Shown: positions 1 to 14,640 of the stretch, one piece after another
Layout: the number at the start of each line of letters is the position of its first letter
Position numbering within the stretch: the first letter of the stretch is position 1
Origin: a virus
Taxonomy: Duplodnaviria > Heunggongvirae > Uroviricota > Caudoviricetes
Length of the DNA stretch: 14,640 bases
Reading direction: 5' to 3' (one strand)
IMG/VR virus record: IMGVR_UViG_2630968342_000015
The notes under the pieces: model-generated
What the model saw: only the letters and a program-made list of their open reading frames with translations
Databases searched by the model: none
Told to the model about the DNA's origin: nothing
Program-made: the position numbers and the translations under genes

Positions 1-1218
1 ATGAACAAACTGAGCGATACCTTGCTAAGGAAACTTCATGGTAAGCCAGCGGAGAAAAACACGTTTTATAGTGATGGCGGAAACCTGAGCGTGAAATATT
101 TAACATCAGGGAAATTGACCTGGTATTTCACATACAGGGCCGGAACGGGAAGGGAGACACGACCCGAACGCATTAAGCTGGGAAGTTATCCTGATCTGAG
201 CCTGAAAGCAGCCAGGGAAAAAGCCGCACAGTGTCGCACATGGCTGGCTGAGGGGAAAAATCCACGTCATGAGATGAATTACACCGTACAGGAAGCGTTA
301 AAGCCCGTAACGGTTGGCGATGCGCTCACCTACTGGCTTGAGTATTACGTAAAGGAAAACCGCGTGGATTATATCGCCCTGAAAAGGCGACTTAATAATC
401 ACGTAATACAGCAGATTGGTGCTATGCCGCTGGATAAATGCGAGCTACGGCACTGGCTGGCCTGTTTTGACCAGGTGGCAAAGCGAACGCCTGTTACTGC
501 CGGATTCGTGCTACAGGCGTGCAAACAGGCGCTTAAGTTCTGCCGTAGGCGGCGCTATGCAATCAGCAACGTTCTGGACGATCTGAACGTGGCGGACGTT
601 GGGAAAAAACCGGATATAAGCGAACGTGTCTTAAGTAACAAAGAACTTGGCGAATTATTGCAGGCACTGGACAAAAAAATATTCTCCCCTTACTACGTCG
701 CGTTAATCCGCCTCCTGATTGTCTTCGGAGCCAGAACGGTAGAACTGAGGTTATCGGAGATCGGAGAGTGGGATTTTACGGAAATGCTATGGACCGTTCC
801 GAAGGAGCACAGCAAAACGAAGGTCGCAATATTCCGGCCCATACCGGAAGCGATCCTGCCGTTCGTCACGCAGCTGGTGGAGCAGAACAGGCACACGGGC
901 TTATTGCTGGGGGAAGTGAAACAGGAGGCCAGCGTATCGCAGTATGGAAGATTAGCGCACAGGAGGCTTAATCATCCTCACTGGTCACTGCATGACATCC
1001 GGCGCACCTTTACAACCATGCTGAACGATTTAGGCGTTGATCCGCATGTCGTGGAGCAGCTTACAGGCCACCAGATGCCAGGAATGCAGCGAGTTTATAA
1101 TCATTCCCGTTATCTGGATGCTAAACGCAATGCGCTGGATATGTGGACGGAGCGGTTAGGGATACTGGCGGGAACACATGAAAACGTAACCACGCTACCA
1201 GTAGCCAGAAGAAAATAA
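1..1218 (+). CDS. int: Tyrosine recombinase, P4-type phage integrase
   Basis: 405-aa ORF. C-terminal catalytic signature LHDIRRTF ... GHQMPGMQRVYNHSRY fits the tyrosine recombinase pattern; N-terminus resembles P4-type arm-binding region. ORF starts exactly at window position 1, so the true 5' end cannot be confirmed. Confidence 0.9.
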   Translation: MNKLSDTLLRKLHGKPAEKNTFYSDGGNLSVKYLTSGKLTWYFTYRAGTGRETRPERIKLGSYPDLSLKAAREKAAQCRTWLAEGKNPRHEMNYTVQEALKPVTVGDALTYWLEYYVKENRVDYIALKRRLNNHVIQQIGAMPLDKCELRHWLACFDQVAKRTPVTAGFVLQACKQALKFCRRRRYAISNVLDDLNVADVGKKPDISERVLSNKELGELLQALDKKIFSPYYVALIRLLIVFGARTVELRLSEIGEWDFTEMLWTVPKEHSKTKVAIFRPIPEAILPFVTQLVEQNRHTGLLLGEVKQEASVSQYGRLAHRRLNHPHWSLHDIRRTFTTMLNDLGVDPHVVEQLTGHQMPGMQRVYNHSRYLDAKRNALDMWTERLGILAGTHENVTTLPVARRK

Positions 1219-1235
1219 TTTTTTTCGTGTTTTTT

Positions 1236-1251
1236 CAGTATGCGCATACTG
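1236..1251. promoter_or_regulatory. Perfect 16-bp palindrome CAGTATGCGCATACTG just downstream of int stop; candidate protein-binding site
   Basis: Read directly from sequence. No U-run follows on either strand, so it is not a terminator. Confidence 0.3.
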
Positions 1252-1260
1252 GATATGCGA

Positions 1261-1310
1261 ACAGATACAACGTGCAACAATGAGCAACAATGCGGAACAA
1301 CTACGAACAA
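1261..1310 (-). repeat. Five tandem 10-bp units, minus-strand reading TTGTTCGTAG TTGTTCCGCA TTGTTGCTCA TTGTTGCACG TTGTATCTGT
   Basis: ACAA recurs with exact 10-bp periodicity at 1267-1270, 1277-1280, 1287-1290, 1297-1300, 1307-1310. The first two minus-strand units differ at 3 of 20 positions from the plus-strand array at 6862-6881. Confidence 0.55.
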
Positions 1311-1592
1311 GAGGCGAAAAAGTGTACGGATTTATAAGTAGCTGATTTTTAATGTGTTACTGGTTTTTTATACACTAGCGAATCACTCTTTAAATAGCGA
1401 GAAAAAAGGCATGAAACAATATTTTATGCCTTTGTATTAACATGAATTTAAATGATTTTATCCTGATTATTCCTCTTTCTGTAAACCATGCGACCTCAAC
1501 ATTTGCCAACTCTGAATCATCCTGACACAATCAGACACATCCCAACGCAATAGAACACGAAATAACTCTTTAAGAAACGAAAGGGGGCAATA

Positions 1593-1781
1593 GTGTTAAG
1601 CACTGATCGGTTTATACGTGAAAAAGAATGCGAAAAGCTAACAGGCCTTAGCCGCTCATGCCGCTACCGCCTGGAAAAGGCCGGACAATTCCCATCACGT
1701 CGTAAACTTAGCGGTCGTTCCGTTGGCTGGTCTTTATCCGAGGTTCTGGCCTGGAAGGATAGCTGCAAGGCAGTTCATTAA
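1593..1781 (+). CDS. alpA: AlpA-family transcriptional regulator / excisionase-like HTH protein
   Basis: 62 aa, GTG start preceded by SD AAGGGGG (1581-1587). LTGLSRSCRYRLEKAGQFPSRRKLSGRSVGWSLSEVLAW matches the conserved AlpA pattern. Confidence 0.8.
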   Translation: MLSTDRFIREKECEKLTGLSRSCRYRLEKAGQFPSRRKLSGRSVGWSLSEVLAWKDSCKAVH

Positions 1782-1927
1782 TCACGCTGGCGGCACGCAG
1801 CCGCCACACATCAATCATCTGAACACAGAGCTATAACCATGAAGATTGAATATACGCCAGAACGTGGGCGGGGATTCGTTCGCCCTGGTGAAACTGAAAA
1901 ACAACAAAATTGGGGTTTTTCAGGTAT

Positions 1928-1955
1928 AAAAAAAGCGGCCCCGAAATGGAGCCGC
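1928..1955 (-). terminator. Intrinsic terminator for the minus-strand repressor operon (weakly bidirectional)
   Basis: On the minus strand: GCGGCUCC-AUUUC-GGGGCCGC (8-bp stem, one G-U wobble) followed by seven U. On the plus strand the same stem has a C-A mismatch and no U-run. Confidence 0.7.
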
Positions 1956-13443: not shown

Positions 13444-13456
13444 TGAGGTCAGCAGC

Positions 13457-13738
13457 ATGACAGAAGCCGAAATAACGGGATTAATCCGCCGCGTTGCCGG
13501 AATCAGCCAGCAGGCTGACGAACAGGCCACGCAGCCGGACAGCGTGACAGCCGAAAACTATGCGCGTGTTGTTGCTGAGGTGATGCGCCGTGATGGTATA
13601 GAACTTAATGGCGTGGATATGCGCAACATACGAACCAGAGTTCTTGAGTTGCTGGCCTACCGTCGCCGCGTGGAGATGTATCGGGAGAAGGAGAAAATAA
13701 CGTACCACTGGAAGAAGCCGGAGCGGTTGCGGCGGTAA
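13457..13738 (+). CDS. Hypothetical protein (93 aa), last gene of the element
   Basis: ATG 13457 with SD GAGG. No recognisable family. Confidence 0.5.
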   Translation: MTEAEITGLIRRVAGISQQADEQATQPDSVTAENYARVVAEVMRRDGIELNGVDMRNIRTRVLELLAYRRRVEMYREKEKITYHWKKPERLRR

Positions 13739-14030
13739 CTGGTTGATATTCCCGACGGACCAAAAATGGGTGGCTACATCCCTCGCTTCTGAGGACTGTT
13801 AACAAGCTGCCTGAAAGACAGTCACAAACTACGAAATTTTCGCAGTTTAATTAATGATCAGCTTAATCGCTAACCCGCTGATATTTTCGGAAACCTCAAT
13901 TTGAGGAAGTCGGCGCGGTAACTCGCTGAACTTTAAGCAAAGTGCAAAATTGCGCTTGCTGAATAATCATTATGATTACGCAGATGATTAAGGAATGACC
14001 GAAGGCGGAAATTCGCCTGTGGTTAATGGG

Positions 14031-14144
14031 GGAGTTGCAGATCTGCAACTCGACCATGAAACTACGGAAACTACCCGTAGTTTGGGTAGTAAGAGTAACA
14101 CCCAGATTTTGGGTCTTACTCGTGATACCCAAATTTGGGGTATC
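14031..14144. promoter_or_regulatory. Cluster of palindromes in the right noncoding arm
   Basis: Perfect 20-bp palindrome GAGTTGCAGATCTGCAACTC (14031-14050). 9-bp inverted repeat AAACTACGG / CCGTAGTTT (14059-14083). Two related palindromes ACCCAGATTTTGGGT (14100-14114) and GATACCCAAATTTGGGGTATC (14124-14144). Confidence 0.45.
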
Positions 14145-14361
14145 AGTGGCAACCATAACGACTTTCGTTACGGTTGATGCTTTTACCCCATTGGGGGAAA
14201 GGTATTACGATAATCATAACACCTACCGAACAGGTAAAGCCCACCAGCCTGATTAACGTTTAACCGGAAAAAAATTCCGGTAGGTGGGGATCCCCATATC
14301 GACATTAACGCCCCTCATGAATTGGTGCGCTTCCCCCTGGAAAGATGATCCGCCTGTATAT

Positions 14362-14457
14362 TTCTTGTGTCTATTTGTTCCACGTTGTTTCATACAGTGC
14401 ACCGAACGGTGTAGTCACTGGTGTAGTCATTTTGCGATTTTTGGCACTTTTTGCGGT
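14362..14457. repeat. Right-arm repeats near the junction: TTGTTCCACG TTGTTTCATA (14375-14394), tandem GGTGTAGTCA(C/T) (14408-14418, 14420-14430), TTTTGCG repeats
   Basis: Read directly. The 15-mer at 14375-14389 is identical to 6872-6886. Candidate integrase/excisionase arm-type sites. Confidence 0.4.
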
Positions 14458-14475
14458 GAAAATTATTTAATTAAA

Positions 14476-14640
14476 TCAACGTGTTATGTGAAATAAGTTA
14501 TATATAACAGCAATAAATAATGCGAGAATAAACGGCACGATGATCTCGGCGGCAAAACGGATACCGCAGAGAATAATGACCAGCATTCCCAACATAATGA
14601 CGATTTTTAGGCCATTGAGCGTGATGATCGGCTTTGCCAT
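14476..14640 (-). pseudogene. tqsA: 5' fragment of a tqsA-like (AI-2 exporter family) membrane protein gene, apparently truncated by the island
   Basis: Minus-strand translation [46 protein letters not shown] then [13 protein letters not shown]. The first ~46 residues match E. coli TqsA/YdgG as recalled from memory (unverified); divergence begins at about 14502. Confidence 0.45.

Follow-up and report, generated by a model that had tools for sequence, protein, structure and literature searches.

The 14,640-nucleotide (nt) stretch of viral DNA held as IMG/VR record IMGVR_UViG_2630968342_000015 (hereafter the window, meaning the whole stretch analyzed) very probably represents a capsid-forming phage-inducible chromosomal island (cf-PICI) of the EcCIEDL933 lineage, integrated in tqsA of Escherichia coli G1/2 and measuring 14,699 bp. 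As a mosaic sibling of EcCIEDL933, the prototype cf-PICI described in the literature, it is of an already known kind. The window matched the chromosome of E. coli G1/2, a faecal isolate from a healthy human, at 100% identity (NZ_CP060083.1, 2491600-2506239). EcCIEDL933, located in the EDL933 chromosome (NZ_CP008957.1) between roxA and phoQ, shared 97.7% DNA identity with window positions 5586-13750 (ssb to an open reading frame [ORF] of 93 amino acids [aa]; 8.2 kb), 94.3% with 4-2801 (int to the Icd-like ORF), and 89.9% with 14148-14485 (right att arm), and both elements had the same gene order from int to the 93-aa ORF. Record OR845787 (listed host, ATCC 43895) was considered as the EDL933 element and set aside, as it belongs to a different wastewater cf-PICI lineage (~76% identical).

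Both boundaries were resolved against the intact tqsA gene of E. coli K-12, which aligned to the two flanks at 100% identity with an overlap of 9 bp (ATAACAGCA); the insert is therefore 14,699 bp between 9-bp direct repeats, K-12 represents the empty site, and insertion in G1/2 was precise. The left end of the element lies 186 bp before window position 1 (195 bp counting the attL core) and its right end at 14503 (14512 counting the attR core), so that the extent of 1-14502 given in an initial annotation, made from the letters of the window, was essentially exact on the right and 186 bp short on the left. Phage satellites span approximately 10-18 kb, and the insert is of that size, site specific, and framed by att repeats. 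Over 12 kb, the left flank contained fumC, tus, rstAB, folM, ydgI, ydgH, pntAB, and, bordering the window, the 3' portion of tqsA (left-flank coordinates L001 10907-11812); core genes in the right flank (12 kb) were ydgV, mdtJI, and ydgD. In G1/2, tqsA is interrupted at gene nt 129-137 (codons 43-46) with no restoration of its reading frame, and carriers of the tqsA-inserted variant (at least 70 complete genomes) are consequently predicted to be tqsA mutants. A literature search yielded no pairing of tqsA with a PICI, and this search did not extend to a comparison with the six attB sites tabulated in the supplement of the cf-PICI paper (Alqurainy et al., bioRxiv 10.1101/2022.09.08.507074).

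The strongest evidence for the assignment came from the head and packaging genes. The major capsid protein was 100% identical over 385 aa to chain B of PDB 9GYI, the EcCIEDL933 capsid determined by cryo-electron microscopy (He et al., bioRxiv 10.1101/2025.02.11.637232). All 11 products of the head and packaging operon were equal in length to their EcCIEDL933 counterparts and 87-100% identical to them. The element encodes its own capsid set (major capsid protein, protease, and portal; Pfam E values of 4e-48 to 9e-91), its own packaging enzymes (HNH, TerS, and TerL; 98-100% identical to the prototype), and a head-closure protein and connector (Phage_HCP/TIGR01563 and Phage_connect_1), the last two being a criterion in PMC10085698. 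Judged by profile matches, 11 of 11 core components of the SatelliteFinder cfPICI model (PMC10085698) were present, together with a PICI-type left module (integrase, AlpA-type regulator, and primase-replicase, all on the + strand). No ORF on either strand, including the larger unannotated ones, matched a tail, tape-measure, baseplate, lysis, holin, or polymerase family (Pfam, PHROGs, and NCBIfam), and the tail, holin, and lysis genes forbidden in the cfPICI model were thus absent within the att boundaries. Nor did the 14.7-kb insert contain the tail, lysis, and immunity modules of an autonomous temperate tailed phage.

These results agree with the initial annotation, which had read the window as a tail-less, capsid-encoding satellite of cf-PICI type or a close relative. 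The integrase, AlpA, and primase-helicase that it named were present and intact (Pfam, phrog_2790), as was the full HK97-type head and packaging set, and the iteron origin and the lack of tail, tape-measure, baseplate, lysis, and polymerase ORFs were also upheld; the comparison with published cf-PICI proteins that it proposed gave the capsid match to 9GYI described above, and the assignment could be narrowed to a recombinant sibling of the prototype. Findings that it had listed as contrary to its reading were sought: the 12-kb left flank held host core genes and no tail or lysis genes, the att repeats bounded the 14,699-bp insert rather than a larger prophage, and no inactivating frameshift occurred in the head genes. 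Feature coordinates are given in Table 1.

Table 1. Features of the tqsA-integrated element and its borders, in window coordinates (identities are to the EcCIEDL933 counterpart).
Feature	Position	Strand	Basis
attL core ATAACAGCA	195-187 bp upstream of window position 1		K-12 tqsA alignment
Tyrosine integrase, 409 aa	1-1218	+	Pfam Arm-DNA-bind_3, Phage_int_M, Phage_integrase
AlpA-type excisionase/activator	1593-1781	+	phrog_2790 "excisionase and transcriptional regulator," E 2e-17
Uncertain coding region	1839-2582		RefSeq 247-aa + strand hypothetical protein WP_001304194.1
Minus-strand ORF	2051-2239	-	phrog_21027, E 2e-15
Minus-strand 63-aa ORF	2282-2473	-	Arc-like ribbon-helix-helix phrog_228, E 5e-7
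Icd-like small protein	2608-2805	+	NCBIfam NF033153 phage_ICD_like, E 6e-18
106-aa ORF and DUF4222 ORF	2798-3424	+	phrog_15327; Pfam DUF4222
Primase-helicase (D5 type), 605 aa	3421-5238	+	Pfam D5_N, DUF5906, Pox_D5
Iteron origin	5250-5476		AACTGTTCACC x10, directly downstream of primase gene
81-aa ORF, SSB, PerC-family regulator, 74-aa ORF	5526-6810	+	Pfam SSB, PerC
Major capsid protein, HK97 fold	7103-8260	+	Pfam Phage_capsid, E 3e-61
Prohead serine protease	8300-8872	+	Pfam Peptidase_S78, E 4e-48; 98.9% identical
Portal	8874-10085	+	Pfam Phage_portal, E 9e-91; 99.3% identical
Head-closure protein (adaptor)	10082-10420	+	Pfam Phage_HCP, TIGR01563; 96.4% identical
gp6-type head-tail connector	10417-10713	+	Pfam Phage_connect_1; 100% identical
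HNH endonuclease	10713-11153	+	Pfam HNH; 99.3% identical
60-aa ORF after HNH	within 10713-11319	+	100% identical
Predicted cos site	11320-11441		Ends of vB_KppS-Ant linear genome record
TerS, P27 family	11442-11798	+	Pfam Terminase_4; 100% identical
TerL	11782-13443	+	Pfam TerL_ATPase, TerL_nuclease; 98.0% identical
93-aa ORF ending operon	13457-13738	+	phrog_1561, E 3e-56; 87.1% identical
Noncoding right end	13739-14503		Palindrome-rich block 14015-14200 and right att arm
attR core ATAACAGCA	14504-14512		9-bp overlap of K-12 tqsA flank alignments
tqsA 5' remnant (AI-2 exporter, host gene)	14497-14640, 144 nt	-	RefSeq and K-12 tqsA alignment

Much of what such an element does is known from the prototype. 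In EcCIEDL933, alpA was required for helper-induced replication and transfer, each gene of the packaging module was needed for transfer and none for replication, and small capsids were built of satellite proteins (Alqurainy et al., bioRxiv 10.1101/2022.09.08.507074; He et al., bioRxiv 10.1101/2025.02.11.637232). The EcCIEDL933 capsid was T=4 and 47.5 nm, without cross-links or decoration proteins, and cf-PICIs released tail-less, DNA-filled heads that joined the tails of different phages (He et al., bioRxiv 10.1101/2025.02.11.637232). Transfer of EcCIEDL933 needed helper tail genes gp10 and gp14 (major tail and tape measure), and adaptor and connector determine tail compatibility in cf-PICIs. 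Helper-dependent induction, small capsids, and tail-dependent transfer are experimentally known for EcCIEDL933 and a few others only.

By analogy with these steps, shown for the prototype, we infer a similar life cycle for the G1/2 element. A helper prophage would turn on alpA, and AlpA and the integrase would excise the element at the ATAACAGCA core; the D5-type primase-helicase would then replicate it from the iteron origin. Expression of the late operon would supply the capsid protein, S78 protease, and portal for a small T=4 HK97-fold capsid, and HNH, TerS, and TerL would cut the satellite DNA at a cos site, which is predicted to lie between the 60-aa ORF and terS, and package it. The head-closure protein and connector, which on the same analogy are the interface accepting the helper tail, would complete a tail-less, DNA-filled head, infective once joined to a helper siphovirus tail. 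The predicted partners are HK106-type tails, given that the EcCIEDL933 proteins share 100% (connector) and 96% (head-closure protein) identity with those encoded here.

Several points weigh against this reading of the G1/2 copy as a functional cf-PICI. Its inducibility and mobility would follow from its sequence identity to EcCIEDL933, and a repressor is at most tentatively supported. As the replication module differs from that of the prototype, the match between primase and origin is deduced solely from the position of the iterons. The cos site was placed within 11320-11441 by taking the record ends of the 16.5-kb "induced prophage" vB_KppS-Ant (LR881103) as packaged ends, which is an assumption; the left end of that record lies 22 nt before TerS and its right end just after the small ORF following HNH, aligning to window position ~11355. 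In HK97-type phages the gene order is HNH, cos, TerS-TerL. Finally, no helper was identified in G1/2, where the nearest prophage, in ynfG, was inspected. This lambdoid prophage (NZ_CP060083.1, 2516501-2566500), 11 kb right of the element, has a lambdoid early region, an N4-gp56-family capsid, and terminase, portal, and capsid genes annotated as frameshifted; given its capsid type and frameshifted head genes, it was rejected as an HK106-type tail donor and is not an obvious helper. A RelE/ParE toxin-antitoxin pair and a KilA-N protein are encoded in this prophage as well.

Three other explanations were weighed. Phages are the source of the head and packaging genes (HK97-type families), which could have been left by an HK97-like prophage that decayed through deletion of its tail, lysis, and lysogeny-control genes and is no longer mobile; the missing helper, and the fact that the G1/2 copy is known from sequence alone, would suit such a remnant. 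We consider it very unlikely, because the insertion is clean and site specific, with a 9-bp core and no deletion scar, all genes are intact and match the functional EcCIEDL933 genes in length, and the left half is a PICI-type int-alpA-primase module instead of a phage immunity/replication region. Decay is also at odds with the recurrence of the 14.7-kb architecture in 70 genomes and of the packaging module in 386 at several att sites, and with the deposited phages, none of which shares more than ~21% of the window, and that at ~77% identity.

Little more than a slight chance, of the same order, was given to a structurally complete cf-PICI stranded in its lineage, that is, silent and vertically inherited, for want of a matching inducer or tail donor or with mismatched replication or arm sites. 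The lack of an obvious helper nearby would be in keeping with stranding, as would the mosaic structure (replaced replication module and altered integrase arm-binding domain) and the report that no resident prophage of EDL933 mobilized EcCIEDL933 efficiently. Against it, the arm repeats have changed in step with the N-terminal domain of the integrase (GGTGTAGTCA versus GGTGTAGTTA), the same replication module and iterons occur in 426 genomes, and near-identical copies occupy the same site in O26, O111, and O157:H7 PV15-279. A classical PICI or P4-like satellite that remodels the helper capsid, its "capsid" gene merely redirecting size, has a negligible probability: it would account for the int-alpA-primase-ssb-perC left half and 93-aa ORF common to classical E. 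coli PICIs, and primase genes are exchanged between the two families (PMC10085698), but the portal, head-closure protein, connector, and TerL present here are forbidden in the PICI model and separate cfPICI from PICI in SatelliteFinder (PMC10085698), the capsid protein is identical to the T=4 shell protein of PDB 9GYI, and lambda-type cosN is absent.

The integrated cf-PICI of the EcCIEDL933 lineage thus remained the preferred reading, and its distribution was examined in 5,426 complete E. coli genomes. Of these, 70 contained the full element (a match to 80% or more of the window) and 386 the packaging module. Near-identical copies at the tqsA site in unrelated serotypes (O26, O111, and O157:H7 PV15-279, as above) point to recent horizontal spread. 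Capsid homologues were found in Shigella (98%) and in Rosenbergiella, Citrobacter, Erwinia, and Gilliamella (66-74%). With SatelliteFinder, ~970 cf-PICIs have been reported, in 13% of Enterobacteriaceae genomes.

Relative to EcCIEDL933, window positions 2801-5586 are a swapped replication module. The D5-type primase-helicase, which is the replication initiator of the satellite, was 28.6% identical to the DUF927-type protein of EcCIEDL933, and the ORFs at 2798-3424 were 18-31% identical to their counterparts. The module occurred at 96.7% DNA identity in a cf-PICI of strain 2D (rcnR/thiM site) and was present in 426 complete E. coli genomes. Allowing at most 1 mismatch and counting both orientations, AACTGTTCACC occurred ten times in the 227 bp of the origin, whereas chance would give 0.2 copies in the entire window, and the iteron origin was accepted as real on these counts. 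Allelic Pri-Rep variants have been reported in PICIs (Fillol-Salom et al. 2018, PMC6092414), as has gene flow between PICI families that includes primase exchange (PMC10085698); the module swap in the G1/2 element fits both.

The integrase (GTG start in RefSeq, 12 nt upstream of the window) was 91.4% identical to that of EcCIEDL933 (EDL933-locus coordinates L005 5329-6558), with 21 of 35 differences in the first 100 aa, the arm-binding domain, and a nearly invariant catalytic domain. AlpA was 96.8% identical. Tandem copies of GGTGTAGTCA were found at 14408-14417 and 14420-14429, and the repeat also occurred left of int (L001 11941-11963), as would be expected for integrase arm-type sites inside both ends. 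The G1/2 repeat reads GTCA where 3 of 4 EDL933 copies (GGTGTAGTTA) read GTTA, with differences of 1-2 nt, and it was at both ends that the arm repeats had changed in step with the integrase N-terminal domain. The att cores were unrelated (ATAACAGCA in tqsA versus GGACATATTT between roxA and phoQ). Natural target-site respecification, by a pair of integrases 91% identical with different chromosomal targets, is a lesser possibility.

Between alpA and the Icd-like ORF, the gene content was uncertain. The initial annotation had placed a repressor in the element, and what survives of that claim is a pair of weak candidates. The 247-aa ORF at 1839-2582 was rejected as a repressor, and its RefSeq product is probably not a real protein, because it had no family match (Pfam, PHROGs, NCBIfam, and PADLOC models on the + strand product), an implausible Cys/Ser/Arg-rich composition, and no codon periodicity in substitutions relative to relatives. 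AT skew was -0.28 across this region and positive elsewhere in the window. The two minus-strand ORFs (Table 1) are better coding candidates; that at 2282-2473, which scored 20.4 bits against Pfam HicB (under the cutoff of 21), is a possible ribbon-helix-helix regulator. The Icd-like protein, 98.5% identical to that of EcCIEDL933, also matched PHROGs labeled "transcriptional repressor." In Gram-negative PICIs, induction has been described through alpA.

Downstream of the origin, SSB, PerC, and the 74-aa ORF product each matched their EcCIEDL933 counterparts at 100% identity. Immediately ahead of the capsid operon, perC and the 74-aa ORF are each followed by one of two nearly identical terminator-like hairpins, ACAGCCGGAG(A/C)AATCCGGCTTTTT, spaced 354 bp apart at 6465-6488 and 6819-6842 (6467-6484 and 6821-6838 in a narrower delimitation); late-operon transcription may be controlled at these sites. 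RefSeq lists a 116-nt "trigger factor, frameshifted" pseudogene at 6430-6545 in G1/2 as well as in EDL933, most likely through an artifact of annotation.

Past the 93-aa ORF, whose homologues are found at the equivalent place in classical PICIs, a stretch of 758 bp with no gene annotated reaches to the tqsA 5' remnant, matching the ~760 bp of noncoding DNA before a host-like gene in the initial annotation. The variable region after the packaging operon is expected to hold immune systems (He et al., bioRxiv 10.1101/2025.02.11.637232). ORFs inside the noncoding end had no family match (PADLOC defence models and profile searches), PADLOC defence models also gave no match on ORFs of unknown function in the window, and the 765-bp noncoding end had no match in the phage database. 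Rfam searches of the whole window (E up to 1) returned chance-level matches only (miRNA models on origin palindromes; rnk_pseudo, E 0.59) and nothing on the 3' noncoding region. Lambda-type cosN (GGGCGGCGACCT, at most 2 mismatches) was absent from the window and from one classical PICI locus, so it explains neither packaging nor the palindromic block described below.

Within this noncoding end, positions 14015-14200 form four strong hairpins (RNA fold energy, -89 kcal/mol; z, -9.2; opposite strand z, -9.0). The block (~120-190 nt) was matched by 1,117 of the 5,426 complete E. coli genomes and was absent from EcCIEDL933 at the equivalent place. It stood downstream of a 93-aa ORF homologue in 8 of 9 loci, in cf-PICIs and classical PICIs alike, and started ~40-45 nt past the stop codon of that ORF in most loci examined; in the ninth (strain A41) the annotated gene upstream of the block encodes a DUF3892-domain protein. 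Among nine block homologues, one compensatory change was seen in hairpin 1, and the other stems were near-invariant; these sequences are too similar for covariation to distinguish between an RNA and a DNA-binding site. The latter would also be compatible with several of the stems, which are palindromes lacking a loop. That the block is an undescribed functional cis-element or small RNA of PICIs (e.g., regulatory, packaging related, or anti-phage) is a tentative suggestion of low probability.

A cf-PICI was recognizable here from raw sequence, down to its right boundary. Biologically, the G1/2 element adds little, as cf-PICIs have been described and the capsid structure of the prototype solved. 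Its modest addition is an exact map of an EcCIEDL933 sibling that integrates in tqsA, an example of how modules (replication, integrase, and att specificity) are exchanged while the packaging module stays almost unchanged. Further additions are the splitting of tqsA, the AI-2 exporter gene, in its hosts, the predicted location of cos, and an unannotated structured block at the right ends of PICIs.

Among known systems, classical E. coli PICIs (EcCICFT073 type, PMC6092414) share the int-alpA-Icd-like-DUF4222-primase-ssb(-perC) left half with the G1/2 element, and both have unidirectional rightward transcription and, at the right end, the 93-aa ORF and the palindromic block. In contrast, classical PICIs lack portal, head-tail proteins, and TerL, and use the helper capsid and terminase via a lambda-like cos (PMC6092414, PMC10085698). 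The HK97-fold capsid with its N-terminal domain, S78 protease, portal, and gp6-like connector resemble those of HK97 and HK106, and the predicted HNH-dependent cos packaging and P27-family TerS are like those of HK97-type siphoviruses; however, the G1/2 element lacks tail, lysis, and immunity genes and reaches a third of their genome size, the EcCIEDL933 capsid is T=4 without covalent cross-links as opposed to T=7 in HK97-type phages, and protein identity to phage homologues is low.

The strain 2D cf-PICI (between rcnR and thiM) and vB_KppS-Ant have the same overall architecture as the G1/2 element and head and packaging modules ~77-81% identical to it in DNA, but differ in integrases and att sites. 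The strain 2D element carries the same palindromic block after its 93-aa ORF, and its portal and HNH genes enclose one annotated head-tail gene (L007 16480-16782), as against two in the G1/2 element. Directly after TerL, vB_KppS-Ant has a 766-aa ORF (2036-4333) annotated as "tail length tape measure protein"; the window has no counterpart of this ORF, which probably is an accessory gene of the variable region or has been misnamed.

EcCIEDL933 was the closest relative, and differed in several respects. It lies in the roxA/phoQ intergenic region, whereas the G1/2 element lies inside tqsA; it replicates with a DUF927-type protein (710 aa) preceded by four small ORFs, whereas G1/2 has a D5-type primase (605 aa), two small ORFs, and a different origin; its 3' noncoding region is partly different, with the palindrome-rich block at that place in the G1/2 element only; and it is 15.4-15.5 kb long, against 14.7 kb. 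Judged by these alignments, the G1/2 element has the same regulation and packaging modules as the prototype, a different replication allele, and an integrase variant with another target.

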